Below, piece after piece: positions 18,961 to 39,966 of a DNA stretch of 64,000 bases. The notes beneath the pieces were generated by a model that made no database searches, had not been told where the DNA came from, and saw only the letters and a program-made list of their open reading frames with translations. Both the position numbers and the translations under genes were made by a program. The stretch covers positions 14,070 through 78,069 of the forward strand of contig CACIQI010000005.1 of NCBI GenBank assembly GCA_902588745.1, written 5' to 3'. How positions within the stretch are numbered: the first letter of the stretch is position 1; each line of letters begins with the position of its first letter. The DNA is from an uncultured Alphaproteobacteria bacterium. Lineage in GTDB: Bacteria > Pseudomonadota > Alphaproteobacteria > HIMB59 > GCA-002718135.

Positions 18961-20024
18961 TACTTCATACCTGTACTTGCTATTCCTGTTGTTATAAATT
19001 TTTGTAAGTAAGCAAATATAATTGCTATAGGTAATAAAGTTACCATAGTCATTGATAATACATAATTCCACTGACTAGTAAGTTCTCCGTGAAATGCGTT
19101 TAATCCAATTTGCAATGTATAAACTTCACTTTTTGATAAAACTATTAAAGGCCATAAGAAATCATTCCACCTCCACATTATGGAAAAAATTGCTAAAACT
19201 GCAATCGCAGGTATAGATAAAGGTAGGACAACTCGCCAATAAATTGCCCATTCACTTGCGTGATCCATTCTTGCTGCTTCTATAAGCTCTCTAGGCAATG
19301 TAAGCATATATTGACGAAGTAAAAAAACTCCTGTTGGTGTTGCAGCACCTGGAAGAATTACGCCCCATAATGAATTTATCATTCCAAAGTTTGCAACAAC
19401 ATAAAAAACTGGTACCAAAATTATCGTTAATGGAATTAATAATGTACCTATAACAAAAACAAGTGCAAAATTTTTCCCTCTAAACTCATATATAGAAAGT
19501 GCATATGCTGCCATTGAATTTATTATTAACGTTATTATTGTTGCTACAACAGTAATGAAAGTTGAGTTTTTGAAATAAAGTAAGAAATCATACTTTCTTA
19601 AAGGATCAACATAGTTTTGCCACTGAATTTTAAATTCTCTAATTTTTTCTCTTTTATCAATGGGTACTTTTACTGTTTCTCCTGGGTTTAGAGGATCAAC
19701 CATTTTAGCATTAATTCCAATTCTTTTAATTTGTGCTAACTGCTTTACTGACCCATCTTCTTGTGTCACATTAAAAATTGGTAAGGGTTTATCGTATCCT
19801 TCAACATCAACTTGAATTTGAGAAAGTGGCAAAATTGTTGGAGGATATTCTTGTATACCTGCTAATGTCTTTAATGAAGATAATCCTAACCACACAACAG
19901 GACCAAACATTAAAAGAACACCTAAAAATAAATAAAAATAAGAAAAATAATCTGTCCAATGATATTTATTTTTATATCTTTTTTTTGTAGCAATTTTTAT
20001 TATTCTTGAAGTTGTTTCAGACAT
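18960..20024 (-). CDS. CUT1 sugar ABC permease (MalG-like) with an enlarged periplasmic loop of about 100 aa
   Basis: 354 aa with the EAA-type loop REL.EAARMDHAS.W.I...V.LP. Confidence 0.85.
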   Translation of the reverse strand: MSETTSRIIKIATKKRYKNKYHWTDYFSYFYLFLGVLLMFGPVVWLGLSSLKTLAGIQEYPPTILPLSQIQVDVEGYDKPLPIFNVTQEDGSVKQLAQIKRIGINAKMVDPLNPGETVKVPIDKREKIREFKIQWQNYVDPLRKYDFLLYFKNSTFITVVATIITLIINSMAAYALSIYEFRGKNFALVFVIGTLLIPLTIILVPVFYVVANFGMINSLWGVILPGAATPTGVFLLRQYMLTLPRELIEAARMDHASEWAIYWRVVLPLSIPAIAVLAIFSIMWRWNDFLWPLIVLSKSEVYTLQIGLNAFHGELTSQWNYVLSMTMVTLLPIAIIFAYLQKFITTGIASTGMK

Positions 20025-20025
20025 A

Positions 20026-21057
20026 TTAGATTTCTTGATGTTTACTTTCTTTATTTCGACTGAAATATAATTGCATAAGTGTTAAAAATAAAAGTACCAC
20101 ACCGAGAACCATAGATGCGGCGGCTGCAAGACCAAAATTTTGAACAGATCCAGATGAAGCAAATCCTGTGGTAAAAATATATTGAACAATCAATGATGTA
20201 GATGTTCCAGGCCCCCCACCAGTTAAAACATATATTTCATCAAATGTTTGAACACCTTTTATTGAGGCAAGAATAAATACAACTAATAAATTTGGCATTA
20301 GAAGAGGTAGAGTTATTCGAAAGAAAATTCTTTCTCGGCTAGTTCCATCCATTTCGGCTGCCTCATATAAATTTGGAGGTATTGCTTGAAGACCTGCTAA
20401 TACAATCAGAGTGTAAAAACCCATATGGGCCCATATTGATACAAAGATTACAGATGCCATAGCCCATGATGGATCCGTTAAAAATGATACTTTGTCTCCA
20501 CCATAAGACTCAATTATTGCATTGAAAGCTCCATTTTTTAGCAGTATCCATTGCCAAATCAAACCAACAACAACTGGTGACAATAAAACAGGGAAAAAAA
20601 ATACCGATCTAAAAAAGCCTCTGCCAATAATTTTCTTATTTAATATCACGGCAGTCAAAACTGAAAAGAAAATCATTAAGCCAACTTGAAAAACAACAAA
20701 AAATATAGTGTTATAAACTCCTCTCCAAAAAAAATCTTCTGTACATGTATTTGGGTTTAAATAACTCTCACAATCAAATAACTGATCATATTGTTTTGTT
20801 GTAGGAAGTTCTCTCTCAGCAAATAACAGTTCGTCACCAGATGATAATGAAAAGAAAAAGTTTGCACCAAGAGGGATTATTACAAATAATCCAAAAAAAA
20901 TTAAATTTGGAAGCAAAAAAATATATGGCATATTTCTTACACCAATAATTTTTTGAATTGGCCACATGATTAAATCAATAGCATGCATTAAAAATGCAAA
21001 GGGAATGTTTAAAATTCTAAGGAAAAAAATTTTTGTTTGATTTCTAATATTTTCCAT
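20026..21057 (-). CDS. CUT1 sugar ABC permease (MalF/UgpA-like)
   Basis: 343 aa with the EAA loop LYEAAEMDGTSRERIFFRITLPLL. Confidence 0.85.
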   Translation of the reverse strand: MENIRNQTKIFFLRILNIPFAFLMHAIDLIMWPIQKIIGVRNMPYIFLLPNLIFFGLFVIIPLGANFFFSLSSGDELLFAERELPTTKQYDQLFDCESYLNPNTCTEDFFWRGVYNTIFFVVFQVGLMIFFSVLTAVILNKKIIGRGFFRSVFFFPVLLSPVVVGLIWQWILLKNGAFNAIIESYGGDKVSFLTDPSWAMASVIFVSIWAHMGFYTLIVLAGLQAIPPNLYEAAEMDGTSRERIFFRITLPLLMPNLLVVFILASIKGVQTFDEIYVLTGGGPGTSTSLIVQYIFTTGFASSGSVQNFGLAAAASMVLGVVLLFLTLMQLYFSRNKESKHQEI

Positions 21058-21075
21058 TAAATGATTTCGAAAAAA

Positions 21076-21096
21076 AGCTGCTCAAAATGAGCAGCT
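21076..21096 (-). terminator. hairpin plus T tract between the binding-protein gene and the first permease gene
   Basis: The minus strand reads AGCTGCTCA-TTT-TGAGCAGCT (9-bp stem) followed by TTTTTT, about 15 nt before the permease ATG (21057). Confidence 0.65.
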
Positions 21097-21122
21097 TTAT
21101 ATTATTATTATTTTGGATGTAA

Positions 21123-22403
21123 TTATCCGCCGTATTTTTCTTTAAGTTGTTTTTCAACATCTTCATCCATACGCGTCCAAGCTTCTTCCATTGTCATTTC
21201 ACCAACAATAGCTTGTCCTAATCTTGAGATAATTGCGTTAAACATTATACGGTTGTCAACGTGTGCCTGAAGATCAAAAGCGACTTGATCAATAGTTGGC
21301 ACTGCGCCAGCAAAAGTGTTTAATGCATGTTTTGCGTTTGGATCATCAGTTTGATAGTCAACTTGTAGATCTAAGTGTCCAGGGATAGCAAGAACTTGAC
21401 CAATAAAACTACTTAGTTGTTCTTTACTAGAAAGATAATCCATTACCTTTCCAACAGCTGGATTAGCATTGAATGCTAATAGTGCATTTCCACCTGGCAT
21501 TCCAGTACATGCAGCAGGACCACATGGAGCTGGTACAGCCCACCAATCAAAATCATCTCCTACTTCATTTGCAAATCTTCCAATTTGCCATGAACCACTC
21601 ATCATGAAAACTACCTCAGCAGCATTCCACCAATCATTTGGAGCATGATATTTAGATCCTGAAACTGATCCCCAAAGATCTTTACTCATTGTACCTGCTT
21701 GGTGCCAGTCATAAAGCATTTGAGTCATAGCTTTTAATCCATCATCAACTAATTTTGGATCACCATTTGAATCAAAATATTTCGCACCCATAGAAATCGC
21801 AGGGCCTGATACACGGTGACCTGATCTATCCCAAGCCATTGGTATAGGAGTACCTGTTTTTTCTGCTACTTCAATTGAAACTGCTGCCCATTCTTCCCAA
21901 GTTGCACCAGGGCCTAATAGATCTACACCAGCTTGTTCAAATAGAGTTTTATTTACATATGGACCAGTAACGGTCATTGTAGAATGGAAACCATGAATTG
22001 AAGTTGTATCTCCAGGCTTACGATACCAATTTAAAAAAGGACCGAAGCTTTTTTCATAGTAACTTGGATCAGCTACATAAGGCGTAATATCAGCATAATA
22101 TTTGTTTAATCCACCAAGATCAGTAACACGAGCAATGTCAGGACCTTCACCAGCAGCAAGCTGGATAGGTAGAGTGTTCATTATTGCATCATATGGTACA
22201 ATATCTAAAATTACATTTATATCTGGATTAGCTGCATTAAACTCATCAATTTGTGCTGCAATTGGCACATTTTCTTTGTCTCCATCTCCATACCACATAA
22301 TACGTACATCTGTGGCAGCAAAAGAAACTGCAGAAATTAAAGTTAATGAGAATGAAACTAAAGCTACAGATATTGCTTTTAAAATAAACTTAAAGTTCAT
22401 CAT
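21123..22403 (-). CDS. extracellular solute-binding protein family 1 (CUT1 sugar-binding protein)
   Basis: 426 aa. Signal peptide ...LISAVSFA followed by ATD. Operon-first position. Confidence 0.85.
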   Translation of the reverse strand: MMNFKFILKAISVALVSFSLTLISAVSFAATDVRIMWYGDGDKENVPIAAQIDEFNAANPDINVILDIVPYDAIMNTLPIQLAAGEGPDIARVTDLGGLNKYYADITPYVADPSYYEKSFGPFLNWYRKPGDTTSIHGFHSTMTVTGPYVNKTLFEQAGVDLLGPGATWEEWAAVSIEVAEKTGTPIPMAWDRSGHRVSGPAISMGAKYFDSNGDPKLVDDGLKAMTQMLYDWHQAGTMSKDLWGSVSGSKYHAPNDWWNAAEVVFMMSGSWQIGRFANEVGDDFDWWAVPAPCGPAACTGMPGGNALLAFNANPAVGKVMDYLSSKEQLSSFIGQVLAIPGHLDLQVDYQTDDPNAKHALNTFAGAVPTIDQVAFDLQAHVDNRIMFNAIISRLGQAIVGEMTMEEAWTRMDEDVEKQLKEKYGG

Positions 22404-22496
22404 TTATCCTCCAATTTTTTTCAGACTTAAACATATTAAATTATTATATACAAGTAATAAAAACCCAGAAATAATGGCAAATTTTGAAATTAAATA

Positions 22497-22521
22497 ATAA
22501 TATTTTGTTAAAAAATATTAT
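22497..22521. promoter_or_regulatory. inverted repeat ATAATATTTT-N5-AAAATATTAT, 17 nt upstream of the isomerase-like gene
   Basis: 10-bp perfect arms read directly from the sequence. They are all A/T, so chance occurrence is not negligible. Confidence 0.25.
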
Positions 22522-22538
22522 AAACATATCAAAATTCA

Positions 22539-23912
22539 ATGATTGGTTATTTAGCATTAGCAAGAGATACATTTGATATAAATTATGCTTTAGATAATAA
22601 AAAAAGGTTTGAAAAATTTATAGATATTTTAGACATTAAATACTCACATTTTAAAGAATTAATTACAGATGATGAAACAGGGAAAAAAGCTATTAGATAT
22701 TTTAAAAAACTAAATTGTAGCAAATATATCATTGCTCAAACAACTTTCACTGATGCAAAATTTATAACAAGTTTTGCTAAAACATTTAATAAACCAATAC
22801 ATTTAATAAGTTTTAAAGAGCCGAGAACAGGTAAGCGGTTAAGATTGAACTCTTTATGTGGTGTAAATCTTGCTATGCATTCTTTAATCAAATTAAAATA
22901 TAAACCAGAATTTTCAATATTTATTAATAATAAATTATTTGAAATGGAAAAAATTAATAATTTTTTAAAAAATAAAAAAATTTTAAAAAATAATACATTG
23001 AAAAAAATAAAAAATCCTAAAAAGAAAGATGATATTATTTTTTCAAAAAAAAAGAATTTAGGACTTGTTGGAAAAAGACCAGATGGATTTTTTACCTGTG
23101 ATTATGATAATAGAGAAATAGAAAAAAAATTAAATTATAGTCTTAAGAAAATTAAATTAGAAACTTTGTTTAATATTTCTAAAAATGTTAGCACTAAAGA
23201 TATTACAAAAACTAAAAATCAAATAAAAAAAGATTTAAAATCAGTCTCAAAGTTGAATGCAAATGAATTAAATAAAAGTATTTCAATTTTTCATGGATTA
23301 GAAAAAATAAAAAATGATAACAAAATTGATACTTTTGCAATTAAGTGTTGGCCTGAAATGTTTACTCAATTTGGATGTGCATCATGTGGTCCAATGGCTA
23401 TGATGAATGAAAAGGGAGTTAGTAGTGCATGTGAAGCTGATGTATTAGGAAGTATAAGTTGCGATATTTTAAATAAGATAAATAACAGCCCGTCACTTTT
23501 AGTAGATGTTGTTGATTGTGATCCCAAAACTGATACTTTAGTTTTTTGGCATTGTGGATTAGCTCCAATTAGTATGGCAAAAAAAAATACAGCAAGTGCA
23601 ACTGTACATTCTAATAGAAGGAAAGCATTGCTTCATGATTTTGCATTTAGACCTGGAAAAATAACAATATTTAGAGTTTCAAAATCAGAAAATAAATTAA
23701 AATTTATTGTTATTAAAGGTGAAGTTTTAGATAAAAAAAATTCATTTTCAGGTACTTCGGGTGTTGTGAGATTTCAAACAAATACCTATCAAAAATTAGT
23801 TAGATTATTCACGTCTGGTATCGAACATCATCTAGCATTCACATATGGAGATGTATATTCAGAAATAAAAAAACTAAGTGCGCAATTGAATATTCCAATT
23901 TACACAACATGA
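22539..23912 (+). CDS. L-fucose/L-arabinose isomerase family protein (short FucI/AraA-like aldose-ketose isomerase)
   Basis: 457 aa. The C-terminal half carries AIKCWPEMFTQFGCASCGPMAMMNEKGVSSACEADVLGS and FWHCG blocks typical of this family. A K/N-rich low-complexity linker lies in the middle. Confidence 0.65.
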   Translation: MIGYLALARDTFDINYALDNKKRFEKFIDILDIKYSHFKELITDDETGKKAIRYFKKLNCSKYIIAQTTFTDAKFITSFAKTFNKPIHLISFKEPRTGKRLRLNSLCGVNLAMHSLIKLKYKPEFSIFINNKLFEMEKINNFLKNKKILKNNTLKKIKNPKKKDDIIFSKKKNLGLVGKRPDGFFTCDYDNREIEKKLNYSLKKIKLETLFNISKNVSTKDITKTKNQIKKDLKSVSKLNANELNKSISIFHGLEKIKNDNKIDTFAIKCWPEMFTQFGCASCGPMAMMNEKGVSSACEADVLGSISCDILNKINNSPSLLVDVVDCDPKTDTLVFWHCGLAPISMAKKNTASATVHSNRRKALLHDFAFRPGKITIFRVSKSENKLKFIVIKGEVLDKKNSFSGTSGVVRFQTNTYQKLVRLFTSGIEHHLAFTYGDVYSEIKKLSAQLNIPIYTT

Positions 23913-24997
23913 AAACAAAAATTAAATATGGAATTGTTGGAAGTGGACTAATGGGTTGTGAACATATTTCAAATATTAATCTTATAGATTCAGCTGAAGT
24001 AGTTGCCATCTCAGACAGTAATGAAAATTCAATAAATAAAGCTAAAAATCTTATCTCAAATGATATTAAAATCTATTCAAATAATAATGAAATTTTTAAA
24101 AATAATGAAGTGGATGCTTTTATTATTTCGACTCCCAATTTTACCCATCATGATATAATTAAAGAAGCGTTAAAAACAAAAAAACATTTATTAATTGAAA
24201 AACCCTTATGTACAAAATTAGAAGATTGTCTTGAAATTAAAAAATTATCAACTTCATATCCATCAGTTATATGGGTGGCTATGGAGTATAGGTACATGCC
24301 ACCTGTTAAAAAAATGATCCAAGAAATAGGTAGTAATAAAATTGGTAAGCTTAAAATGCTTTCAATTCGTGAACATAGATTTCCATTTCTCAAAAAAGTA
24401 GATGATTGGAATAGATTCCAAATAAACACCGGTGGAACATTAGTAGAAAAATGCTGTCATTTTTTTGATTTAATGCGCCTAATTACAAATAGTGAAGTTA
24501 CACAAGTATATGCAAGTGGTGACCAAAGTGTAAATCATCTTAATGAAAATTATAATGGAAAAGTTCCTGATATATTGGACAATGCATTTGTAATTTTAGA
24601 TTTTAAAAATGGAATAAGAAGTTCTTTAGAACTTTGTATGTTTGCAGAAAATTCAGAAATGCAAGAAGAGCTATGTGCTGTTGGAGATAAGGGTAAAATA
24701 GAAACAGGTGTGCCAGCTGATGTATCTGGAAAAAACTCTTCAGAAGTTAGAATAGGTTTAAGAAACTCTAAAAATGCAATTAAAGAATTAGTTGAGGTAG
24801 ATAAAAAAATTTTATCAGCTGGGCAACATCATGGATCGACTTATTATCAACATTTAGAATTTATTAAAGCAATTAATAATAATTTAAAACCACAAGTTTC
24901 TATAAACGATGGTCTTCATGCAGTGGCTATTGGAGAAGCAGCAGAGAAATCAATAAAAGAAAATCGTGTGGTTAAGATGAGTGAATTTAATCTTTAA
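23909..24997 (+). CDS. Gfo/Idh/MocA family oxidoreductase
   Basis: 362 aa with YGIVGSGLMGCEH and EKPLCTK. ATGA overlap with the upstream gene. Confidence 0.85.
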   Translation: MKTKIKYGIVGSGLMGCEHISNINLIDSAEVVAISDSNENSINKAKNLISNDIKIYSNNNEIFKNNEVDAFIISTPNFTHHDIIKEALKTKKHLLIEKPLCTKLEDCLEIKKLSTSYPSVIWVAMEYRYMPPVKKMIQEIGSNKIGKLKMLSIREHRFPFLKKVDDWNRFQINTGGTLVEKCCHFFDLMRLITNSEVTQVYASGDQSVNHLNENYNGKVPDILDNAFVILDFKNGIRSSLELCMFAENSEMQEELCAVGDKGKIETGVPADVSGKNSSEVRIGLRNSKNAIKELVEVDKKILSAGQHHGSTYYQHLEFIKAINNNLKPQVSINDGLHAVAIGEAAEKSIKENRVVKMSEFNL

Positions 24998-25922
24998 AAT
25001 ATTCAAAAAATTTATTTGTTTTATCAATTATAAAATTACTTACTCTAACGTTTGATTCAGCAGTTACACCTGCAATATGAGGTGATAAGATGCAATTCAT
25101 ATCATTTGTAATATTGTTAAAAAATTCTTCATTTACTGGTTCATTTTCAAAAACATCTAATGCGAAACCAGAGATATATTTATTTTTATAAGCATCAATT
25201 AAGTCTTTCTCATTGATGACGCCACCCCTAGAAGAATTAATTATAATTGGTTGTTTTTTCATTTTAATAAAAGCTTGTCTGTCAAATAGATACTTTGTTT
25301 CATTATTTAATGGGACATGAATAGAAATTATGTTGGCCAAATTAAGAATTTCATCGAATGAAACTTTCTTAACATTTTCTGCCTCCATTTGTTTTGAGGT
25401 TATAAAAGGATCATATGCAATACAGCTAACATCAAAAACATTTACAAGATTTAAAACTTTTTTTGAAATATCCCCAAAACCTATTAGACCAAAAGTCTTT
25501 CCTTTAAGTTCTTTTGTAACAATTGATGTCCTTGGCCATTTTCCTTGTAGAGTTTGTTCTTTAATAATGTGAGTTTTTTTTAATAATGTAAGAGAAGAAT
25601 TCAAAACGTATTCTGCAACAGAGTCAGAATTCATACCTGTTGCTGGCTGAACAATGATATTATTTTTTTTACAGTATTCTGTATCTATATTATCAAGACC
25701 AACACCTAATCTTCCTATAAACTTTAAATTTGACGCATTTATTAAAATTTTCTTATCTAAACTTGTTTTATTCCTTACGATGATGCCATCAAATTTCTGA
25801 ATTTCTCTTTCTAAAAAATCTTTATTTTGCCAGGCATCTTTTTTATAGATTACATCAAATTTTTTATTAATATTTTGCAATGATTGTGAATCTATAAATT
25901 CTGTAATTAAAATTTTTGTCAT
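24987..25922 (-). CDS. D-isomer-specific 2-hydroxyacid dehydrogenase (phosphoglycerate/glycerate/hydroxypyruvate reductase-like)
   Basis: 311 aa with GLIGFGDISKKV, SSRGGVI, DVFENEP and SPHIAG. Confidence 0.85.
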   Translation of the reverse strand: MTKILITEFIDSQSLQNINKKFDVIYKKDAWQNKDFLEREIQKFDGIIVRNKTSLDKKILINASNLKFIGRLGVGLDNIDTEYCKKNNIIVQPATGMNSDSVAEYVLNSSLTLLKKTHIIKEQTLQGKWPRTSIVTKELKGKTFGLIGFGDISKKVLNLVNVFDVSCIAYDPFITSKQMEAENVKKVSFDEILNLANIISIHVPLNNETKYLFDRQAFIKMKKQPIIINSSRGGVINEKDLIDAYKNKYISGFALDVFENEPVNEEFFNNITNDMNCILSPHIAGVTAESNVRVSNFIIDKTNKFFEYFKD

Positions 25923-26827
25923 TTAATTTTTCTAATTTTTAATTTTTTTAAAAACTTTTTTACGTTGTTTAAATTTGGTATTGAATATATGCCTCCTGCT
26001 TTCATGCATTTTAAAGTTGCAGTAGCTGCTGCCAATTGAATACTTTGAGAGTTTGATTTATTTAATGATAGAGCTGTTGCAAAAGCACCATGAAAAACAT
26101 CTCCTGCACAATTCGTTTCAACTGTTTTTACTTTTGGAACATTACAATGATATAATGAGTTATTTTCAACCCAATAAACACCTTTTGATCCCATAGTAAC
26201 TGCAACAAATTTATTTGTTTCATTGAATATTTGAAAAAGAGCCTTTTGCGTATTGATGTTTTTTTTATAAGTTTTCAAACCTTCTTCAGAAAATATAGGG
26301 TGCGAAGCTTTGTGAACAATTTCAGAAATTTTATTAGAATTTTTAAAATTATCTAGATCAGCAACACATTTAATATTTTTTTTATTGGTATTAATAGCAA
26401 TATAAGAGGCCATATCTATCCATCTCATATCTATTGAATAAATATCCTTTTTTTTAAAATTTAATTTGGGTATTTTCTTATAATCAAGTAATTTTGGATC
26501 ATTGTATGCTGCTAGTAATCTTTCACCCTTTGTATCCTCAATTACAAAGCTTTGCGAAGACTGACATTTTTTAATAAAAATTGATTTACTAGTATTTATA
26601 GAAAATTTTTTTAATTCATTTTTTAAAAAGACTGATGAATCATCATCTCCAAATTTTCCTATGAATTTTGATTCAGAGCCCAAAATTCTTGCAGTAAATG
26701 CCGATACTGCTGCTGAACCACCTAATCTTTTATCAATACCTCTAGATAAAACTTTAATTGGTTTTTTTGGAAATTTATTAATCCTACTTATGTAATCTGT
26801 AAATATTGATCCTGCACAAATGATCAT
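25919..26827 (-). CDS. PfkB family carbohydrate kinase
   Basis: 302 aa with an N-terminal GGSAAVSA block and the C-terminal PfkB signature TNCAGDVFHGAF. Confidence 0.85.
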   Translation of the reverse strand: MIICAGSIFTDYISRINKFPKKPIKVLSRGIDKRLGGSAAVSAFTARILGSESKFIGKFGDDDSSVFLKNELKKFSINTSKSIFIKKCQSSQSFVIEDTKGERLLAAYNDPKLLDYKKIPKLNFKKKDIYSIDMRWIDMASYIAINTNKKNIKCVADLDNFKNSNKISEIVHKASHPIFSEEGLKTYKKNINTQKALFQIFNETNKFVAVTMGSKGVYWVENNSLYHCNVPKVKTVETNCAGDVFHGAFATALSLNKSNSQSIQLAAATATLKCMKAGGIYSIPNLNNVKKFLKKLKIRKIK

Positions 26828-26837
26828 AAAATATTAA

Positions 26838-27407
26838 TTAAAGGTATTTAACTTTACCAATAAACTTTCTAAACCTATCTCTTATAGTTATAGGATTGAG
26901 CGGAATGGGATCAATTTTAACATTTCCAGAATTGATCTTTGAAATTATTACATATGAATTATCTTTATCATCAATGGCTTTGTTTAATTCATTAACTGTT
27001 TCCTCGCCAGAACATTCAATCACATTTTTGCAGCCAGCTCCTAATGCAACATCCTTTAAGGAAGTTTTCTCATCAGTAAATGTTCGTTGATCTCCTGTAG
27101 ATCCATAAGAACCATTATCAATTATCAATAAAGTATAGTTTGATGGCGCTCTATTACCTATTGTTGCTAAAGTATTCATATTCATTAAAACTGATCCATC
27201 ACCATCTATACTAATAACGTGTTTATTTTGGGATAGTGCCAAGCCTAAGCCAATAGAAGATGATAAGCCCATACTGCCTAACATATAAAAAAAATTTGGT
27301 TGATCACTAATTTTATATAATTCTTGAGATGGAAGACCTATATTACAAATAACTAAGTTATCTTTAAGAATATTTTGTACCTTATTTAATAAATCAAAAC
27401 GGTTCAT
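26838..27407 (-). CDS. TPP-dependent decarboxylase beta subunit, sulfopyruvate decarboxylase ComE-like (phosphonopyruvate decarboxylase not excluded)
   Basis: 189 aa, the size of ComE. TPP motif IDGDGSVLMNMNTLATIG...LLIIDNGSYGSTG. Confidence 0.65.
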   Translation of the reverse strand: MNRFDLLNKVQNILKDNLVICNIGLPSQELYKISDQPNFFYMLGSMGLSSSIGLGLALSQNKHVISIDGDGSVLMNMNTLATIGNRAPSNYTLLIIDNGSYGSTGDQRTFTDEKTSLKDVALGAGCKNVIECSGEETVNELNKAIDDKDNSYVIISKINSGNVKIDPIPLNPITIRDRFRKFIGKVKYL

Positions 27408-27904
27408 TTATCATCTTTCATTAAATTGAAATCACATAAAATAGCTACTGGTGATTCAACAACTTTGGCATGTTTGCTAAAAGTTGAAATTTTATCTAAT
27501 TCTTTTTCAGAAGAGCAATGCAACATAGGTATTCTCAACGTTTGTAAAATATCTTCAGTAATCTTCGCCATTCCACCTTGCGCTCCTACTGGCTCACCAG
27601 GTGTACCCCTGTAACTAATTAAAAAAACAACAGGCATTTGATATAATTGTAATAGAGAAACAATTGCATTCACTGAATTTCCAATCCCTGTATTCTGCAT
27701 CATTATACACGGGAATTTATTTCCTAAATAAGCTCCAGCACAAATACCCATACCTTCTTCCTCTCTTGGTACAGCTGAATAATAAACATCTTTATCATTT
27801 TCAAGAATATCAATCATGTTGGCTAATAACTTACAAGGAACACTTAAGTAAAAATCTACTCCACCTTTTTTTAAATTATCGATGATTTTTTTACTGATTT
27901 TCAT
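27404..27904 (-). CDS. TPP-dependent decarboxylase alpha subunit, sulfopyruvate decarboxylase ComD-like
   Basis: 166 aa, the size of ComD. Pyrimidine-binding domain blocks (PREEEGMGICAGAYLG, MQNTGIGNS). ATGA overlap with the beta subunit gene. Confidence 0.65.
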   Translation of the reverse strand: MKISKKIIDNLKKGGVDFYLSVPCKLLANMIDILENDKDVYYSAVPREEEGMGICAGAYLGNKFPCIMMQNTGIGNSVNAIVSLLQLYQMPVVFLISYRGTPGEPVGAQGGMAKITEDILQTLRIPMLHCSSEKELDKISTFSKHAKVVESPVAILCDFNLMKDDK

Positions 27905-27950
27905 TTATGCGGATGTCTATAGATATAAAATTATAAAACAATAAATTAAT

Positions 27951-29003
27951 TTATTTAAAATCATTTCTTAATTTTATTTTTGTATTTGAATTATATGTTT
28001 CGCCTACTTTTAATATAGTTGATGGAAAATTTGGTTGATTAATAGCATCTGGAAAAATTTGCGTTTCTAGACACATACCATATTGTAATCCATAATTTCG
28101 ATTATGTTTACCATGATATGAATCTTTCATCATATTACCAGTATAAAATTGTATTCCAGGTTGATCAGTCGAGTATTCAACTCCCATACCAGTAATATTA
28201 CTGTAGATGGAAGCTATAGATTGATCAATAGAATGATCTTTGAGAACATAATTGTGATCAATACCACCGCCATCTAAAAAAGATTTATTTATTTCAAATG
28301 AATTATTAAGATCATATTTTGTATTAACTACATCGAATAATTTACCAGTAGGAATTGATCCCTCATCAGTTTCGCAAATTTGATTAGATGATATTCTTAC
28401 AACATGGTCAGTAATATTTTTATAATTATCTTTATGGCCATGGAAATTCCAATAGTTATGATTAGTCATATTAACAATAGTATCTTGATCTGTAGTAGCA
28501 TTAAAGGAAATTAGAATTTCGTTATTATTATTAAGTTCGTAAATAGTTTTACAATTTAGGTTGCCTGGATAATTTTCTTCTAAATGTTTAGACTGGTAAG
28601 TGAGTTCTACTTTTATACTTTGGCTTGTTTTTATAATATCGGCTATTTTCCAAATCTTTTTATTGAAACCTACCTCTCCACCATGAAGATGATCAGGTTC
28701 AGTATTAGAATATAAATTATATTCTTTCCCATTAAGAGTAAATTTACTTTGCCCTATTCTATTACAAACTCTTCCAATAATTGAATTGAAATATCCATGA
28801 GCTTCCAGGCAATCATCTAAATTACCATAACCTAATAAAACATCCTCTGTTTCAGAAAGATTCGAAGAAATTGGAATACAAACTTCACTCATATAACCAC
28901 CATAAGTATAAAAACTAAAACTATAATTGTTTGAGTTAATAATATTAACTATGTCAATATTTAAACCTTTATCATTTTGAAGTTTGGTAATTTTATATTC
29001 CAT
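27951..29003 (-). CDS. aldose 1-epimerase (mutarotase)
   Basis: 350 aa with HLHGGEVGFNKKIW, TNHNYWNF and CLETQIFPDA blocks of the GalM family. Confidence 0.85.
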   Translation of the reverse strand: MEYKITKLQNDKGLNIDIVNIINSNNYSFSFYTYGGYMSEVCIPISSNLSETEDVLLGYGNLDDCLEAHGYFNSIIGRVCNRIGQSKFTLNGKEYNLYSNTEPDHLHGGEVGFNKKIWKIADIIKTSQSIKVELTYQSKHLEENYPGNLNCKTIYELNNNNEILISFNATTDQDTIVNMTNHNYWNFHGHKDNYKNITDHVVRISSNQICETDEGSIPTGKLFDVVNTKYDLNNSFEINKSFLDGGGIDHNYVLKDHSIDQSIASIYSNITGMGVEYSTDQPGIQFYTGNMMKDSYHGKHNRNYGLQYGMCLETQIFPDAINQPNFPSTILKVGETYNSNTKIKLRNDFK

Positions 29004-29902
29004 TATGTTTTCCTTAATCTTTGAAAATTATTTTTTCTTTGTTGAAGATAAATGATTAATCCACCTAAAACTATGAAAAAAGCACCTGGGAAAAGTTGAT
29101 CAACTGGCCATTCTGCAAAAAATATCCAACCTAAAATAAGTGCAAAAAATATCTCAATATAATCAAATGGCATAATTTTACTAAGTTCTGCTTTTCTAGC
29201 ACCATATATTAAAAGTAAAGTTCCAGATCCTCCTGCAATCCCCATTATACAAACTACTAAGAAATCATTTATACTTTTGAAATTTTCCCACATACCAAAA
29301 AACACCACTAACATACATGCAACTATGATTGTCCCTGTTTGACCATACAAGTTGATAAGTGGTGAAGGAACATGATCCTCAAAACTTAAGGATGTTACCC
29401 TTGCTAGTGAATATCCAAAAGCAGCAAGTATAGGAAGTAATAACATATAATTAAAGTCTGATGACCAAGGTTGCATAATTAAAACGATACCTACAAAACC
29501 AGAAATTACTGCACTCATTTTGTACCAACCAAATTTTTCACCTAATAAAGGAATAGCAAGAAGGGTGACCATCATGGGCCCAGTGTATTCCATGGTAGCG
29601 ACTAAAGCAAAAGGTAAGTAAGCATAAGAAGTATAGAGACATAATTGAGCCAATGCTACAAATACTCCGCGGAATAATCCTAACTTCCATTGCGTTATTT
29701 TTATTTGTCTACCATTGCGGTGCCAATCTTGTGAAAAATATAAAGCAATAACACATGGGATCATTCCAAATAAATTTCTAAAAACAGAAAGTTGAGCTGC
29801 TGGATATTCGTTTCGTAAAAACTTTATCGCAATCCCCATACAATCCAATAAAAACAAACCTGAAAGTGATAATATAACAGCTAAAAATAAATTATTTTTC
29901 AT
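29003..29902 (-). CDS. EamA/DMT family transporter
   Basis: 299 aa, about 10 TM segments, two EamA-like halves. Shares one base with the mutarotase start. Confidence 0.8.
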   Translation of the reverse strand: MKNNLFLAVILSLSGLFLLDCMGIAIKFLRNEYPAAQLSVFRNLFGMIPCVIALYFSQDWHRNGRQIKITQWKLGLFRGVFVALAQLCLYTSYAYLPFALVATMEYTGPMMVTLLAIPLLGEKFGWYKMSAVISGFVGIVLIMQPWSSDFNYMLLLPILAAFGYSLARVTSLSFEDHVPSPLINLYGQTGTIIVACMLVVFFGMWENFKSINDFLVVCIMGIAGGSGTLLLIYGARKAELSKIMPFDYIEIFFALILGWIFFAEWPVDQLFPGAFFIVLGGLIIYLQQRKNNFQRLRKT

Positions 29903-29915
29903 TAATCATAATCTA

Positions 29916-30974
29916 TTATTCTAAAATAATTTCTTTTCCTACTTCTTGACTTTTATAGATTCCATCTAAAATTTTCATTACTTGTAGAGAGTGTTCAGCC
30001 GGAATAGTAACTGGTTGATCGTTTGCAACAAACTCTGCAAACTCGATACATTCTTTGGCATGAGGTTCAATAGTGTCTTTTAAATTTCCTTCAATTTTTT
30101 TAGTTATGTGAGTTTGAGAATTGATATCATTTTTTATAATCTCACAATTAGGCCAATGCAAACCAGCTTCTCTTCCGTATAACCATACCTGCATATCTTC
30201 TATTTTATCTTCTGGTAGTTTATGATGAAGCATCCATGATACTTCAAGCATCAAGGTTGCACCATTTTTAAACCTAACAAACGCAGCTGCAAAATCCTCA
30301 ACGTTCATTGCTTCCTTATCGTATTCTCCATTGTAACTAAAAGAATTTGGATGCTTTGCTAATTCTGTTTTTGACACACCCGTCACAGAAAGTGGTTCTG
30401 GATTGTTCATAAACCAAAGAGTTAAATCTAATACGTGCACCCCTATATCAATACAAGGCCCTCCTCCTGAATTTTCTTTTTTTAAAAAACCAAGTGAGAC
30501 TGGTAAAAAATTTCTTCTAAGCATCCAAGAACGTGCATGATATATCGAACCAATTGATTTGGATTGATCTTTTATTAATTGAGAATCTTTTCTAAATCTA
30601 AAGTGTTGAGCACACATTAATTTTTTTTTCGTTTGATCTCTTACTTCAATCATTTTTTTTATTTGTGAGGCATTTGGAGCTAAGGGTTTTTCACATAAAA
30701 CATCTTTGCCTGCTTGCATTGCTTTAATTGCTAAATCACAATGATAGTTATTAGGCGCACAAATATCTATTACATCTATATCTGGATCATTAATCATATC
30801 TAAGGGATCAAGATATAATTTTTTTATTTGATTTGTATTACCCCAATCTTCGAGTGTTGATTTGTTTATATCAGAGCCTGCTATTAATTCTGCATGTTCT
30901 GACATGCGCCAACCAGGTACATGTAACTTCGCAATGCCACCAACGCCAATAATGCCAACTTTTATTTTACTCAT
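29916..30974 (-). CDS. Gfo/Idh/MocA family oxidoreductase
   Basis: 352 aa with VGIIGVGGIAKLH and EKPLAPN. Confidence 0.85.
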   Translation of the reverse strand: MSKIKVGIIGVGGIAKLHVPGWRMSEHAELIAGSDINKSTLEDWGNTNQIKKLYLDPLDMINDPDIDVIDICAPNNYHCDLAIKAMQAGKDVLCEKPLAPNASQIKKMIEVRDQTKKKLMCAQHFRFRKDSQLIKDQSKSIGSIYHARSWMLRRNFLPVSLGFLKKENSGGGPCIDIGVHVLDLTLWFMNNPEPLSVTGVSKTELAKHPNSFSYNGEYDKEAMNVEDFAAAFVRFKNGATLMLEVSWMLHHKLPEDKIEDMQVWLYGREAGLHWPNCEIIKNDINSQTHITKKIEGNLKDTIEPHAKECIEFAEFVANDQPVTIPAEHSLQVMKILDGIYKSQEVGKEIILE

Positions 30975-30990
30975 ATTTATATTTTTTAAT

Positions 30991-31980
30991 TTAGATATTT
31001 ATCCATTTTTTTTCTTTTTCTGATTGGTAAATTGATTCCATTATACTACTTCTCAATGCTGCTTCTAAAGGAGTAATTAAATTTTTAGTATTGTTATCAA
31101 TTAATGAATTGAGAAATAAATCAAATGCATGAGGTAATGCTTCTGGTAAATTTTCTTCTATTCTTTCTGTTTTTTTACCATCCTTATTTTCGTTTATAAT
31201 TAGTTGCTCATTCGTTGTTCTTGCGTGAGCTTTTGTTCCACTTAAAAAAATAGTATAAGGCTGTGCTATATCTATCCATCCCGCAGCAATACTAGCTATC
31301 AATCCACTTTTAAATTTTATTAATGCTTCTCCACTCTCTTCACAACCTGGATATTGATTATATACTTTTGTAAAGGTTGCACTTACTGACTCAACATCAG
31401 AAAAAAACCATAAAAGAAGATCTAAAACATGTGTTCCTAAATCGCCAAAAGCCCCAACGCCTGCAACTTTAGGATCTGTCATCCATTGATAGTCTTTGAA
31501 AATATCCCTCATAATACCATCGTGACAATTAATGAGTCGAATTCTTGAAATTTCGCCAAAATAATTATCGGTAATTAATTGTTTAAGCTTTATGTAAACA
31601 GGATTGCTTCTCATGAAATATCCAGTTTGAAAAATAATATTTGAAGACTCAATAAGATTTGCCATTTCAAAAGAATCTTTTTTTCCTATCCCCAAAGGTT
31701 TTTCTATAAAACAGTTTTTTTTATTCTCGGTAATCTGTTTAACTAATTCATAGTGCAAATTAGTTTCTGAACACACAATAACACCATCTAAATTAGGTTC
31801 TTTCAATAAATCAATATAGTTATCATAATTCTTACATTTCAGTTTTTCTGAGTCACTTTTTGACCTGTTCTTGTCTTTGTCCCAAACACCAATACAATTA
31901 ATTTTAATGTTTGAAATTACCTTAGAAATAAAATTTGGTGTATGAATATGAGAGGTTCCAATAAATGCTATATTTTTCAT
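30991..31980 (-). CDS. Gfo/Idh/MocA family oxidoreductase
   Basis: 329 aa with IAFIGTSHIH and EKPLGIG. Confidence 0.8.
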   Translation of the reverse strand: MKNIAFIGTSHIHTPNFISKVISNIKINCIGVWDKDKNRSKSDSEKLKCKNYDNYIDLLKEPNLDGVIVCSETNLHYELVKQITENKKNCFIEKPLGIGKKDSFEMANLIESSNIIFQTGYFMRSNPVYIKLKQLITDNYFGEISRIRLINCHDGIMRDIFKDYQWMTDPKVAGVGAFGDLGTHVLDLLLWFFSDVESVSATFTKVYNQYPGCEESGEALIKFKSGLIASIAAGWIDIAQPYTIFLSGTKAHARTTNEQLIINENKDGKKTERIEENLPEALPHAFDLFLNSLIDNNTKNLITPLEAALRSSIMESIYQSEKEKKWINI

Positions 31981-31998
31981 TACAGTTATAAAAACTAC

Positions 31999-32985
31999 TT
32001 ATAGAGCACAACACTGATCGACCCAGTGACCTGGTTCAACTTCAATAAGGCCCATTTTTATTTCTCCACCTTTGCAATCTACTCCAGGATTAGGACATCT
32101 GGTTCTAAACACACAACCTGGAGGTGGATTTAATGCACTAGGAATTTCTCCCTTTAGTTCTATAGCTTCAGATCTTTTCTCTGGATCAATTGATGGAATA
32201 GAAGATAATAGTGCCTTTGTGTAAGAATGTTTTGGATTCTTAAATAATTCTCTTGAGGGTCCCATTTCAACTATGTGCCCCAAATACATAACTGCAACAA
32301 CATCACATACATGAGCTACTACACTTAAATCATGACTTATGAATAAATAAGTTAAGTTAAGCTCGGTTTGAAGTTGTTTTAAAAGATTTAATATATCTGC
32401 TTGTATTGATACATCTAAAGCAGCAACACTTTCGTCTGCTACTATAAATTTTGGATTACTTACTAAGGCTCTTGCAATTGATATTCTTTGTCTTTGTCCT
32501 CCAGAAAATGCATGAGGAAATCTTCTTAAATGCTCAATATTTAATCTACATTTTGAAGCAATGTCTCTTACTCTTTCATCAGTTTCTTGTCTTGAGTTTG
32601 TTATTTTCATCACTTCTAAAGGCTCTGCAATAATATCCCTCACTGTCATTCTTGGACTTAAAGCAGCATAAGGATCTTGAAAAATTAATTGAGCTTTTTT
32701 TCTATATTCTTTTAAATCTTGTTTGTTCATATCTGTTAAATCATAATCTCTTTCATCGTCATGAAAAATAACATTTCCAGAACTAATTTTATTAGCTCCA
32801 AGTATTGCTCTACCAAGAGTAGTTTTTCCTGAACCAGATTCACCCACTAAACCAAAAAAAGATCCTTTTTTAATTTTGATATTGATATTGTTTACAGCAT
32901 GTATTTTTTGTTTTTTTGAAATAAAATTTTCTTGATAATCAAAATTTACTGAAACATTATTTACTGAAATTAAATTATCACCCAT
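31999..32985 (-). CDS. Opp/Dpp-type ABC transporter ATP-binding protein (OppF/DppF-like) with a Cys-rich C-terminal tail
   Basis: Contains GESGSGKTT, FSGGQRQR and the tail CVFRTRCP...C...GHWVDQCC. I place the start at MGDNLISV (ATG 32983-32985), giving an 8-nt overlap with the upstream ATPase gene. The longer tracked ORF extends into that gene. Confidence 0.85.
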   Translation of the reverse strand: MGDNLISVNNVSVNFDYQENFISKKQKIHAVNNINIKIKKGSFFGLVGESGSGKTTLGRAILGANKISSGNVIFHDDERDYDLTDMNKQDLKEYRKKAQLIFQDPYAALSPRMTVRDIIAEPLEVMKITNSRQETDERVRDIASKCRLNIEHLRRFPHAFSGGQRQRISIARALVSNPKFIVADESVAALDVSIQADILNLLKQLQTELNLTYLFISHDLSVVAHVCDVVAVMYLGHIVEMGPSRELFKNPKHSYTKALLSSIPSIDPEKRSEAIELKGEIPSALNPPPGCVFRTRCPNPGVDCKGGEIKMGLIEVEPGHWVDQCCAL

Positions 32986-33967
32986 TTTGACCACACTTAA
33001 TTCCACATTGATCAACCCAGTGACCTGGTTCAACTTCAATTAATTTCATTTCTATTTTACCATCTTTTCCTTCTGGATTATGATGGGGGCATCTAGTTCT
33101 AAATACACACCCAGTTGGTCTATCTAATGGACTTGGAATATTTCCAGGTATTGGAGATAACGGTGCGTCTAAGTTATTTATATCAGGTAAAGCTTGTAAT
33201 AGCCCTTTTGTATAAGGATGTTTTGGATTTTTAAGGATCTCATTTACTGGACCTTTCTCCACTACACTTCCCAAATACATAACCGCTACATGATCAGCTA
33301 CCTGAGCAATAACACCTAGATCGTGAGTAATAAATATTACTCCCATTTGATATTCTTTAATAATATCTTTAATTAGATTAATTACTTGAGCTTGAATTGT
33401 TACGTCTAAAGCAGTTGTTGGCTCATCTGCTAATAAAAGTTTAGGCATTGTTGATAGTGCCATAGCTATCATTGCTCTTTGACGCATTCCCCCAGATAAT
33501 TCAAATGCATATTGATTAAACCGTTTTTCTGCATCTGCTATGCCTACTCTTTTTAGCATGTTTATGGATATTGATTTTGCTTCCTCTTTATTAATATTTT
33601 TATGAATTAGTAATTGCTCAACCATTTGTGCGCCAATTTTTATTGCTGGAGCAAAACTTGCCATAGGCTCTTGAAAAATCATTGATACTTTACCACCTCT
33701 TATTTTTTTTAAGTCTTGCTTAGAGGTAAATTGAAGAACATTTTCGTTGTCTAAAATTATTTCTGCATCTTCATTATAAGAAGTATTACCTGGATTTAAT
33801 TTCATAATCGATTTAGCAGTCACAGATTTACCTGATCCGGATTCACCAACTATACCAAGTACTTCACCTTGATCTACAGAAAGAGAGATATTTTCAACTG
33901 CAGTAATTCTACCTTCGTCAGTATCAAATTTTACATCTAAATTTTTTACTTCTAATAAATGACTCAT
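32978..33967 (-). CDS. Opp/Dpp-type ABC transporter ATP-binding protein (OppD/DppD-like) with a Cys-rich C-terminal tail
   Basis: 329 aa with GESGSGKSV, LSGGMRQR and the tail CVFRTRCP...GHWVDQCGIKC. Confidence 0.88.
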   Translation of the reverse strand: MSHLLEVKNLDVKFDTDEGRITAVENISLSVDQGEVLGIVGESGSGKSVTAKSIMKLNPGNTSYNEDAEIILDNENVLQFTSKQDLKKIRGGKVSMIFQEPMASFAPAIKIGAQMVEQLLIHKNINKEEAKSISINMLKRVGIADAEKRFNQYAFELSGGMRQRAMIAMALSTMPKLLLADEPTTALDVTIQAQVINLIKDIIKEYQMGVIFITHDLGVIAQVADHVAVMYLGSVVEKGPVNEILKNPKHPYTKGLLQALPDINNLDAPLSPIPGNIPSPLDRPTGCVFRTRCPHHNPEGKDGKIEMKLIEVEPGHWVDQCGIKCGQNG

Positions 33968-33968
33968 A

Positions 33969-36132: not shown

Positions 36133-36170
36133 ATAAATAATTAGGAGACAAGAATAATTAAAAAAAGAAA

Positions 36171-36193
36171 AGCGGCAATATATAATTGCCGCT
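36171..36193 (-). terminator. hairpin plus T tract between the binding-protein gene and the first permease gene (also T-flanked on the plus strand)
   Basis: AGCGGCAAT-loop(5)-ATTGCCGCT (9-bp stem) flanked by an A-run and a T-run. On the minus strand it is followed by TTTCTTTTTT upstream of the permease ATG (36132). Confidence 0.7.
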
Positions 36194-36217
36194 TTTTTTA
36201 TTATTTATTGAGTTAAA

Positions 36218-38272: not shown

Positions 38273-38359
38273 ATATTTTCTCCTATAAGATAAATTTATC
38301 GTATGATTTTGTTTGTAAACAATTTTGACTTTTTAGCAAAAATATTTGACGTTTTTATT

Positions 38360-38381
38360 ACAATTTTTTTAAAAAAATTGT
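38360..38381. promoter_or_regulatory. perfect 22-bp palindrome ACAATTTTTTTAAAAAAATTGT in the divergent promoter region
   Basis: Read directly from the sequence. It lies 43 nt upstream of the sulfatase ATG and 88 nt upstream of the binding-protein ATG. Confidence 0.35.
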
Positions 38382-39959: not shown

Positions 39960-39966
39960 TAAAAAT

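Follow-up and report, generated by a model that had tools for sequence, protein, structure and literature searches.

We report here on a stretch of 64,000 nucleotides (hereafter the window) from contig CACIQI010000005.1 of an uncultured alphaproteobacterium (assembly GCA_902588745.1), in which a two-subunit thiamine pyrophosphate (TPP) enzyme, ComDE, is encoded among genes for sugar catabolism. Judged by their sequences, these genes most likely constitute an island for the breakdown of sulfoquinovose (SQ) that includes a sulfopyruvate decarboxylase. SQ is an abundant sulfur sugar of algae, occurring in compounds made at gigatonne scale. An initial inspection of the window (the sequence-only reading) had raised a sulfosugar or sulfolactate link as a possibility, and that link is now supported by a neighboring sulfoquinovosidase of glycoside hydrolase family 188 (GH188), a kinase resembling YihV and an isomerase resembling SftI. 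Two features had been overlooked: the sulfoquinovosidase identity of the gene at 23909-24997, and the length of the same-strand run in which comD and comE stand, which comprises 13 minus-strand genes (38272 to 24987) from an Opp-type importer to a dehydrogenase.

The case for ComDE begins with family-specific hidden Markov models (HMMs). The beta subunit, ComE, scores 223.3 bits against the NCBIfam equivalog TIGR03846 (cut-off 221.5), and the alpha subunit, ComD, scores 161 bits against TIGR03845 (cut-off 147.95). The architecture is as expected, with a PYR-domain alpha subunit of 166 aa split from a PP-domain beta subunit of 189 aa. Both genomic partners were found: an adjacent 2-hydroxyacid dehydrogenase for the supply of sulfopyruvate, and sulfoacetaldehyde acetyltransferase (Xsc) together with a phosphate acyltransferase (Pta) for the use of sulfoacetaldehyde. 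The sequence-only reading had named phosphonopyruvate decarboxylase, accompanied by phosphoenolpyruvate (PEP) mutase, as the competing identity. Both subunits fail the corresponding model, TIGR03297 (133.6 bits for beta and 100 for alpha, cut-off 312.5), and a search of the host genome, itself 79.6% complete, returned no match to PEP mutase. We rejected the phosphonopyruvate decarboxylase identity on these two grounds; ComD and ComE together are very probably a sulfopyruvate decarboxylase (EC 4.1.1.79). It is true that split phosphonopyruvate decarboxylases exist. RhiEF (PDB 9iz3) is homologous to the pair at 84 and 59 bits and, with another split TPP enzyme, represents its solved relatives, both of them distant. 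Nevertheless, given the failed model, the lack of a PEP mutase match and a genomic context that is catabolic, it is extremely unlikely that the pair is a RhiEF-like enzyme serving phosphonate biosynthesis.

The second line of evidence is SqgA, the product of the gene at 23909-24997. Over its full length (residues 4-358) it aligns to the solved NAD+-dependent sulfoquinovosidases FlSqgA (8QC2/8QC8) and ArSqgA (8QC3/5/6) (Kaur et al. 2023; PMC10755693), to which it is approximately 46-48% identical (354.8 bits, E 4e-105 against FlSqgA 8qc2; 347.3 bits against ArSqgA 8qc3). In ArSqgA the residues Lys107, Tyr136, Glu189, His193 and His321 bind SQ, and the sulfonate is held by Arg166, the backbone of Leu170, and Lys172 (PMC10755693). 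In a HMMER alignment the equivalents in the window are K98, Y127, E180, H184 and H307/H308, with R157, L161 and K163 at the sulfonate; none of these catalytic and sulfonate-binding residues varies among the 61 homologues compared (61/61), which include cassette variants at 63-69% identity. We predict the product to be an NAD+-dependent sulfoquinovosidase of GH188 that retains the complete sulfonate pocket.

Among solved proteins the closest relative of the kinase is the sulfofructose kinase YihV of Escherichia coli (7ag6; 160.5 bits, E 5.6e-46; runner-up 103 bits); among solved kinases, no ribokinase or PfkB was found at E ≤ 1e-15. The window kinase keeps Lys27, Arg138, Asp13 and the GAGD motif of YihV, in which Lys27, Arg138 and Asn109 form the sulfonate triad (PMC8006165), and is a putative YihV-type sulfofructose kinase. 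The isomerase has a single NCBIfam match, SftI (NF048012, 284 bits, full length), and no solved relative of it was found. The aldose 1-epimerase matches PF01263 (229.8 bits) and two GalM models (256 and 229 bits); it adjoins ComD in 72 of the 75 loci that extend far enough upstream, and we propose that this GalM-like protein is an SQ mutarotase. The sequence-only reading had likened mutarotase, isomerase and kinase to YihR, YihS and YihV. For the kinase the likeness is borne out by 7ag6, but the isomerase is SftI-like, not YihS, and the mutarotase GalM-like, not YihR.

The dehydrogenase encoded next to the kinase belongs to PF02826/PF00389, and its best NCBIfam model is phosphoglycerate dehydrogenase (PGDH), at 251 bits, which is under the cut-off of that model. 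A homologue adjoins ComDE in a sister genus (loci L001 and L067) and in the distant locus L123 described below. We propose that this SerA/PGDH-like D-2-hydroxyacid dehydrogenase is an (S)-sulfolactate dehydrogenase. Sulfoglycolysis is stated in a review to yield the S enantiomer of sulfolactate. By that review and the Cahn-Ingold-Prelog rules, (S)-sulfolactate would be the D-configured sulfonate analogue of D-3-phosphoglycerate; because the dehydrogenase is a member of a family specific for D isomers and has phosphoglycerate dehydrogenase as its best-scoring model, the stereochemistry would fit.

Genes for the predicted desulfonation are present in the same genome. The last 305 bases of xsc lie within the window, and the full-length product (589 aa) scores 956 bits against TIGR03457 (cut-off 676); Xsc is present in 65 of 73 genomes of the family and in 11/11 of the high-quality ones. 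The sequence-only reading had seen an Xsc-like fragment at the right edge: the part at 63696-64000 is indeed the 3' end of a full Xsc, but 62091-63695 is not Xsc. That open reading frame (ORF; plus strand) encodes a choline-dehydrogenase-like glucose-methanol-choline (GMC) oxidoreductase (571 bits, cut-off 605) and is convergent with xsc. The Pta-type gene is as the sequence-only reading had it, and shares the region 41013-44486 with genes for an alanine dehydrogenase and an omega-aminotransferase; we propose that 41013-45367 is a sulfoacetaldehyde-linked module.

Taken together, the genes would support the following route. SQ glycosides, for example SQ-glycerol, would be imported via one of two adjacent ATP-binding cassette (ABC) systems; SqgA would release SQ with NAD+ as cofactor; the mutarotase would equilibrate the SQ anomers; and the SftI-like isomerase and YihV-like kinase would produce, in turn, sulfofructose and sulfofructose-1-phosphate (SFP). 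Two steps have no dedicated gene. Cleavage of SFP to dihydroxyacetone phosphate and sulfolactaldehyde (SLA) may fall to a housekeeping class II fructose-1,6-bisphosphate (FBP) aldolase, and oxidation of SLA to (S)-sulfolactate to a core aldehyde dehydrogenase of the succinate-semialdehyde dehydrogenase (SSADH) type, or either may be performed by an enzyme still to be found. The SerA-like dehydrogenase, translationally coupled to the kinase, would then convert sulfolactate to sulfopyruvate, ComDE would convert this to sulfoacetaldehyde, and Xsc and Pta would yield acetyl phosphate (then acetyl-CoA) and sulfite. We consider it probable that ComDE acts within the island along this route, with SQ genes as its neighbors. 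The family identities of ComDE, SqgA, kinase, isomerase and Xsc, and their conserved linkage, are read from sequence; the substrate specificities, the two missing steps, the transporter substrates and the direction of flux are what we infer.

One way to evaluate this reading is to ask where ComDE occurs outside the family. We searched 400 alphaproteobacterial genomes with ComE and inspected 12-20 kb around 10 orthologues. The orthologues form a discrete set: 10 genomes of 7 other families carry one at 52-58% identity (195-216 bits), and all remaining matches fall at or below 105 bits. In locus L125 the order is HisD/HpsN-like, ComD, ComE, LldD/SlcD-like, and in L120 it is ComD, ComE, LldD-like. 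It is established (as cited in PMC13436972 and 10.1101/2024.12.10.627767) that HpsN converts 2,3-dihydroxypropane-1-sulfonate (DHPS) to sulfolactate and SlcD converts sulfolactate to sulfopyruvate in pathways of the Roseobacter type.

A third context, as diagnostic as those of L125 and L120, is that of L123, from an alphaproteobacterium of 55% G+C, in which SQ-type genes and comDE are combined in a one-strand operon. In order, it encodes a PfkB kinase; a LacD/DUF2090-type class I aldolase (NF009498, 337 bits); an SftI-like isomerase (252 bits); an SqgA-like protein, 45% identical and with all key residues kept; an epimerase; an SSADH-type aldehyde dehydrogenase (TIGR01780, 644.6 bits), from the family of the known SLA dehydrogenases; a PGDH-like dehydrogenase; and ComD and ComE, followed by an Opp-type ABC importer. 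As predicted from sequence, the operon fills both of the steps that are absent in the window. The aldolase is closest to the DUF2090/LacD-type structure 8tnf (326 bits, as against 54 bits to YihT), and a role in the cleavage of SFP is suggested only by its gene context. The operon shows that SQ genes are also linked with a SerA-like dehydrogenase, with ComDE and with an Opp-type importer in an organism that is phylogenetically far removed.

Closer to the window, the same gene order recurs in 85 loci (80 species-level genomes and 5 metagenome contigs), which means that the arrangement is not due to chance. A sulfatase gene in opposite orientation is followed by genes for a binding protein (SBP5) and OppBCDF, in some loci by two genes of the Gfo/Idh/MocA type, and then by those for EamA, epimerase, ComD, ComE, kinase and dehydrogenase; sqgA and the isomerase gene follow in opposite orientation, and after them the genes of a CUT1 importer. 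The two Gfo genes are an optional cassette, found in approximately 31 loci and missing from many others. Within the 62 loci that extend at least 5.5 kb beyond ComE, 45 have kinase, dehydrogenase and SqgA together, three have a partial set, and 14 lead directly into backbone genes. The sequence-only reading had made its proposal depend on the retention of the sugar genes in orthologous clusters; they are kept in 48 of these 62. The island is conserved in one genus of marine alphaproteobacteria of the HIMB59/AEGEAN-169 type, and co-occurrence was tabulated for the 64 genomes of this genus that are at least 70% complete. ComE is present in 58 and SqgA in 49; 48 genomes have both, 10 have ComE only, five have neither, and in the single genome with SqgA only (1/49) the gene is located at a contig end (Fisher p = 0.002, with no correction for phylogeny).

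The genes of the island are not equally conserved. ComD is 81-100% identical across 84 related loci, and median identities are 93-99% for ComD, ComE, EamA and the Opp genes, compared with 59-82% for kinase, dehydrogenase, SqgA and isomerase. Moreover, the latter group of genes occurs in several distinct versions, with unrelated CUT1 transporters and with extra genes for a GH31 enzyme, a sulfatase plus formylglycine-generating enzyme, or an alpha/beta hydrolase. Because of these medians and the distinct cassette versions, we conclude that the island is a constant ComDE core with a swappable SQ cassette.

The existence of several cassettes allows for the possibility that some of them, the window's perhaps included, have another sulfonated or sulfated sugar as their substrate, whether sulfofucose, sulforhamnose or some sulfated glycoside, with the same C3 chemistry afterwards. 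Versions of the kinase, dehydrogenase, SqgA, isomerase and ABC genes do coexist in the genus at 50-70% identity, with differing transporters and extras, a sulfatase flanks the island, and the resemblance of the isomerase to SftI is distant. Against this, every SqgA variant keeps the residues that in the solved complexes bind the SQ hydroxyls and the 6-sulfonate, including the Glu at the C4 hydroxyl, and no other substrate of this kind comes near SQ glycosides in abundance (PMC10755693, PMC13436972). We regard a different sugar as improbable and retain SQ as the proposed substrate.

The variant cassettes have further features of their own. One version (L031:15026-20039, L138:2-2348) has, after its own CUT1 genes, genes for a further sulfatase of 434 aa, a 231-aa protein resembling formylglycine-generating enzymes and a protein of 608 aa, which suggests a sulfated substrate besides the sulfonated one. 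In L023 (14900-15838) an ORF of 312 aa between the isomerase and binding-protein genes resembles alpha/beta hydrolases, with a GFSMGA motif and no NCBIfam match; it could be an esterase that strips acyl chains from lyso-sulfolipid. GH31 genes, coding for 800-811 aa, are located directly upstream of comD in the sister genus (L067:7023-9458) and, in one variant (L137:396-2798), downstream of the gene for the CUT1 ATPase. We considered the L067 enzyme as a YihQ-type sulfoquinovosidase and rejected it, since the HMMs favor the alpha-glucosidase MalA (291 versus 145 bits).

Several observations weigh against the reading of a single SQ route that passes through ComDE, among them the 14 minimal loci. 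These consist of Opp, EamA, epimerase and ComDE, and have neither kinase, dehydrogenase, SqgA nor isomerase; in nine genomes with a minimal island SqgA was found nowhere. It follows that the SQ module is not required for ComDE to function, nor, oddly, for the epimerase. The epimerase stays tight to ComD in the minimal islands (in L004 the two genes overlap), which are either decayed full islands or a combination of Opp importer, epimerase and ComDE for another substrate.

The minimal loci invite an account in which two independent modules happen to be neighbors: ComDE, Opp, EamA and epimerase would scavenge an external C3 sulfonate (sulfolactate, cysteate-derived sulfopyruvate or DHPS) for Xsc, and the product of the SQ cassette would be exported, as in two-tier degradation. 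The contrast in median identity between the core and the swappable cassette is consistent with such an account, as are the DHPS and sulfolactate contexts of ComDE orthologues elsewhere. Other evidence argues for a connection. The dehydrogenase of the SQ cassette is coupled to the kinase by an ATGA overlap, which makes no sense unless its product proceeds to sulfopyruvate; SqgA is accompanied by ComE in 48 of the 49 genomes that have it; in L123 all of the genes are in one operon; and in the window only 10 nt separate comE from the kinase gene, with no terminator predicted between them. Two unconnected modules thus appear unlikely, and the single route remains our preferred reading.

A second group of observations against the single route concerns the two missing steps. 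The sequence-only reading had remarked that neither an aldolase nor an SLA dehydrogenase is visible, and the remark holds beyond the window, genus-wide: no dedicated SFP aldolase (YihT, PF01791; SqiA, PF01116) was found in the island, its variants or the genus. Searches of the host genome by tblastn with the class I aldolases of L123 (LacD-type) and L067 gave no match, and a class I FBP aldolase is absent from it. In the host and eight near-complete relatives PF01791 is represented by DeoC alone, with no YihT- or LacD-type member. PF01116 picks out two proteins of the genome, FbaA and an enzyme of type IIB with 276 aa, whose gene belongs to an IolC/IolB-like (inositol-type) cluster; the latter is as near to FBP aldolases as to SqiA and shows no co-occurrence with SqgA. 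No aldolase was found downstream of three cassette variants, nor in the corresponding region of a relative that is 96% complete. A second copy of the transaldolase/fructose-6-phosphate aldolase family (TAL/FSA) was discarded as the cleavage enzyme, since it sits in a heptose-biosynthesis cluster. For the oxidation, the island has no dedicated SLA dehydrogenase; an SSADH-like gene, 50.6% identical to the dehydrogenase of L123, is a core gene of the whole family. It was set aside as a specific SLA dehydrogenase because a family-core gene gives no co-occurrence signal.

Two further gene clusters were noted. In locus L129 of the host genome (C1:103617-109329, minus strand) there are genes for a GpsA-like dehydrogenase, a DeoC aldolase (314 aa), an aldehyde dehydrogenase of 786 aa that has some 300 C-terminal residues beyond a core of approximately 485 residues, a FucU/RbsD mutarotase and a ribokinase; this compact cluster probably serves a (deoxy)ribose pathway. 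The island of the sister genus (L001, L067) contains a class I FBP aldolase gene among those for SqgA, ComDE and the dehydrogenase. The gene in L067 (16059-17078; 488 bits, cut-off 250) lies approximately 5 kb from those for SqgA and ComDE, and its neighbors encode a Gfo/Idh/MocA protein, an aldo-keto reductase and a LacI regulator. Its presence weakly hints at the participation of an aldolase of the FBP type, and makes it a candidate enzyme for the cleavage that is otherwise unaccounted for in the sister genus.

The missing aldolase would be accounted for if the pair decarboxylated a non-sulfonated 2-oxo sugar acid instead, either in the chain shortening of an aldonate, followed by isomerase and kinase, or on a phospho-2-oxo acid that the kinase would produce together with a dehydrogenase of the PdxB/SerA-like kind. 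This would also explain why Gfo/Idh/MocA genes are many and why epimerase and ComD are so closely linked. Yet ComDE passes the equivalog cut-offs, its orthologues stand beside HpsN-like and SlcD-like genes, and sulfonate pockets are predicted for the oxidoreductase and, with the Lys and Arg of its triad kept, for the kinase. The chain-shortening and PdxB-type routes were abandoned when SqgA was recognized in the oxidoreductase and a YihV-like enzyme in the kinase; we judge a substrate of this kind to be very improbable, and continue with sulfopyruvate.

Further points against the SQ route concern scores, residues and completeness. The margins by which ComDE exceeds the equivalog cut-offs are narrow. 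At the position of Asn109 of YihV the window kinase has Ala, with an Asn two residues later. The isomerase is below the cut-off of NF048012 (700) and is accordingly a homologue and not a curated equivalog, and the epimerase scores 28.5 bits on the YihR-type model PRK15172 (cut-off 251). The incompleteness of the host genome counts against the route as well.

Sulfolactaldehyde is an analogue of glyceraldehyde 3-phosphate (GAP). It is conceivable that single cells of this cosmopolitan lineage mineralize SQ glycosides completely by a wiring that has not been described previously (GH188, SftI-type, YihV-type, SerA-like, ComDE, Xsc), with no dedicated SFP aldolase or SLA dehydrogenase; FBP aldolase, SSADH or even GAP dehydrogenase and phosphoglycerate kinase would moonlight on the sulfonate analogues, or a new cleavage enzyme would be involved. 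We give this scheme somewhat less than an even chance. The published enzymes of the sulfo-EMP (sulfo-Embden-Meyerhof-Parnas) route discriminate strictly between sulfonate and phosphate (PMC8006165), and because of that selectivity the moonlighting of FBP aldolase is a hypothesis, not a finding.

The gene coordinates and families given by the sequence-only reading all agree with the ORF map, Pfam and NCBIfam, including the epimerase and the drug/metabolite transporter (DMT) upstream and the FucI-like isomerase on the other side. Its junctions within the run are likewise exact. Read on the minus strand, the stop of alpha and the start of beta share an ATGA at 27407-27404, kinase and dehydrogenase share an ATGA at 25922-25919, and 10 nt (26837-26828) separate the TAA of beta from the ATG of the kinase. 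The isomerase and sqgA ORFs also share 4 nt; this pair is convergent on the 13-gene run, and the CUT1 operon is divergent from it. The features are collected in Table 1.

Table 1. Genes of the proposed SQ island and of the proposed sulfoacetaldehyde-linked region in the window (positions are those of the window; strand as indicated).
Feature	Positions	Strand	Remarks
CUT1 sugar ABC importer	16868-22403	-	SBP_bac_1, two permeases, UgpC-type ATPase, embedded second 2-hydroxyacid dehydrogenase
FucI-like isomerase	22539-23912	+	FucI/AraA superfamily, 457 aa
SqgA, GH188-type sulfoquinovosidase (predicted)	23909-24997	+	Gfo/Idh/MocA-like, 362 aa
2-hydroxyacid dehydrogenase	24987-25922	-	ORF map
PfkB kinase	25919-26827	-	302 aa
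Beta subunit ComE	26838-27407	-	189 aa, TPP_enzyme_C (PF02775)
Alpha subunit ComD	27404-27904	-	166 aa, TPP_enzyme_N (PF02776)
Aldose 1-epimerase	27951-29003	-	PF01263
EamA/DMT membrane transporter	29003-29902	-	PF00892
Gfo_e, Gfo/Idh/MocA oxidoreductase	29916-30974	-	Pfam and NCBIfam
Gfo_f, Gfo/Idh/MocA oxidoreductase	30991-31980	-	Pfam and NCBIfam
Opp/Dpp-type ABC importer	31999-38272	-	684-aa SBP_bac_5 binding protein, two permeases, two ATPases
Alanine dehydrogenase	41013-42128	-	NCBIfam
Omega-aminotransferase	42128-43468	-	NCBIfam
Phosphate acyltransferase, Pta-type	43587-44486	+	NCBIfam
Second EamA transporter	44510-45367	+	NCBIfam
xsc 3' end (sulfoacetaldehyde acetyltransferase)	63696-64000	-	remainder outside the window, to approximately 1.5 kb past its edge

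A single terminator-like hairpin was found in the region 22300-38600, just after the binding-protein gene. It is located at 36165-36199, between the gene for the 684-aa binding protein and the first permease gene, and is perfect, with a G+C-containing stem of 12-15 bp and a run of T after it; it can be read on either strand. It may act as an attenuator and in this way increase the amount of binding protein relative to permease.

The Opp/Dpp-type importer is upstream of ComDE in nearly all loci, and an importer of the same type stands beside ComDE in L123 and L124. The EamA/DMT transporter, whose position next to the epimerase is conserved, is possibly an exporter of sulfite or of a sulfonate. 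The CUT1 importer is a candidate for the import of SQ or SQ-glycerol; in the variant cassettes it is swapped for unrelated CUT1 versions, and a comparison of its binding protein with the solved SQ-glycerol binders gave no meaningful match.

Other genes of the window deserve mention. At the left edge of the island, divergent from the Opp-type importer and conserved there, are genes for a sulfatase (PehA-like, 408 bits, cut-off 900) and a core-only MetE-like protein (38424-41016, plus strand); a MetE-like gene also occurs near ComDE in the unrelated locus L117. A dehydrogenase of the Ldh_2 family, also encoded in the island (8430-9479, minus strand), scores 206 bits on the model of the ComC-type L-sulfolactate dehydrogenase and equally on that of ureidoglycolate dehydrogenase; it is kept at 80-97% in two relatives (L139, L140) and could permit the use of (R)-sulfolactate too. 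A uronate-isomerase-like gene (13599-14812, minus strand) is split into ORFs of 114 and 265 aa. The same gene is a single intact ORF, of approximately 404 aa, in the 96%-complete relative (L140:11246-12460) and likewise in variants L137 and L139; the split is a frameshift or sequencing error in the assembly.

The host genome, of which the window is part of contig 5, measures 1.50 Mb at 29-30% G+C, and we place the organism among the streamlined open-ocean alphaproteobacteria of the HIMB59/AEGEAN-169 type, formerly SAR11 subclade V. Relatives of ComE are plentiful in Tara Oceans metagenomes and in single-cell genomes from tropical oceans. The main marine consumers of SQ that have been named in recent studies and reviews are Roseobacteraceae and Alteromonadaceae, and oligotrophs of the SAR11 type are taken to use short sulfonates secondarily (PMC12780224, PMC13436972). 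In the literature searched, including AEGEAN-169 genomics, a survey of marine sulfoquinovosidases, stable isotope probing with 13C-SQ and reviews, we found nothing that ties SAR11, HIMB59 or AEGEAN-169 to SQ.

If the reading is true, an abundant group of oligotrophs would be a primary degrader of SQ and a major overlooked consumer would be added. The two tiers of marine SQ turnover would merge into one cell, and the sulfur would be freed as sulfite by that same cell and not excreted as C3 sulfonates. Gene surveys with a threshold of approximately 54% identity to the SqgA of Roseobacter may overlook the lineage. The missing aldolase and aldehyde dehydrogenase, for their part, pose a concrete question about enzyme promiscuity in streamlined genomes.

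The relation of the island to known systems can be defined gene by gene. SqgA shares with the characterized GH188 enzymes its full-length homology and the identity of all catalytic and sulfonate-binding residues; the host lineage and the ComDE pathway context are apparently not listed in the GH188 survey (PMC10755693). Compared to the archaeal ComDE of coenzyme M biosynthesis, described in Methanocaldococcus jannaschii (Graupner et al. 2000, cited in PMC12141560), the two-subunit architecture and the NCBIfam models are the same, but the context in the window is catabolic and the proteins, just above the cut-offs, fall in a divergent bacterial branch.

With the sulfo-EMP and hybrid sulfo-EMP1/2 pathways (YihQRSTUV of E. 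coli; SqgA and SlaB of Arthrobacter; PMC8006165, PMC10755693, PMC10665668) the island has in common the gateway sulfoquinovosidase (of GH188, like that of Arthrobacter), along with a mutarotase and an aldose-ketose isomerase, and a kinase of the YihV type. It differs in the isomerase, which is of the SftI/FucI type typical of sulfo-TAL clusters and not YihS, and the island, like the genus, is without YihT or SqiA aldolase and without SlaB or YihU. A further difference is that the C3 sulfonate would not be an end product, but would continue to desulfonation by ComDE and Xsc. The sulfolactate route of Roseovarius nubinhibens ISM (SlcD, ComDE, Xsc and Pta; Denger et al. 2009, cited in PMC13436972) has the same lower pathway of split ComDE with Xsc and Pta. 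In the window, however, a soluble SerA-like dehydrogenase would take the place of the flavin mononucleotide (FMN)-type SlcD, the gene for Xsc lies at a distance of approximately 35 kb and is common to the route and a module of the taurine type, and sulfolactate is proposed to be made in the cell from SQ and not imported. The locus joins a lower half of the Roseovarius type to a hybrid upper half (a sulfo-EMP kinase, a sulfo-TAL-type isomerase and a GH188 enzyme), which would bring the complete breakdown of SQ into one cell.

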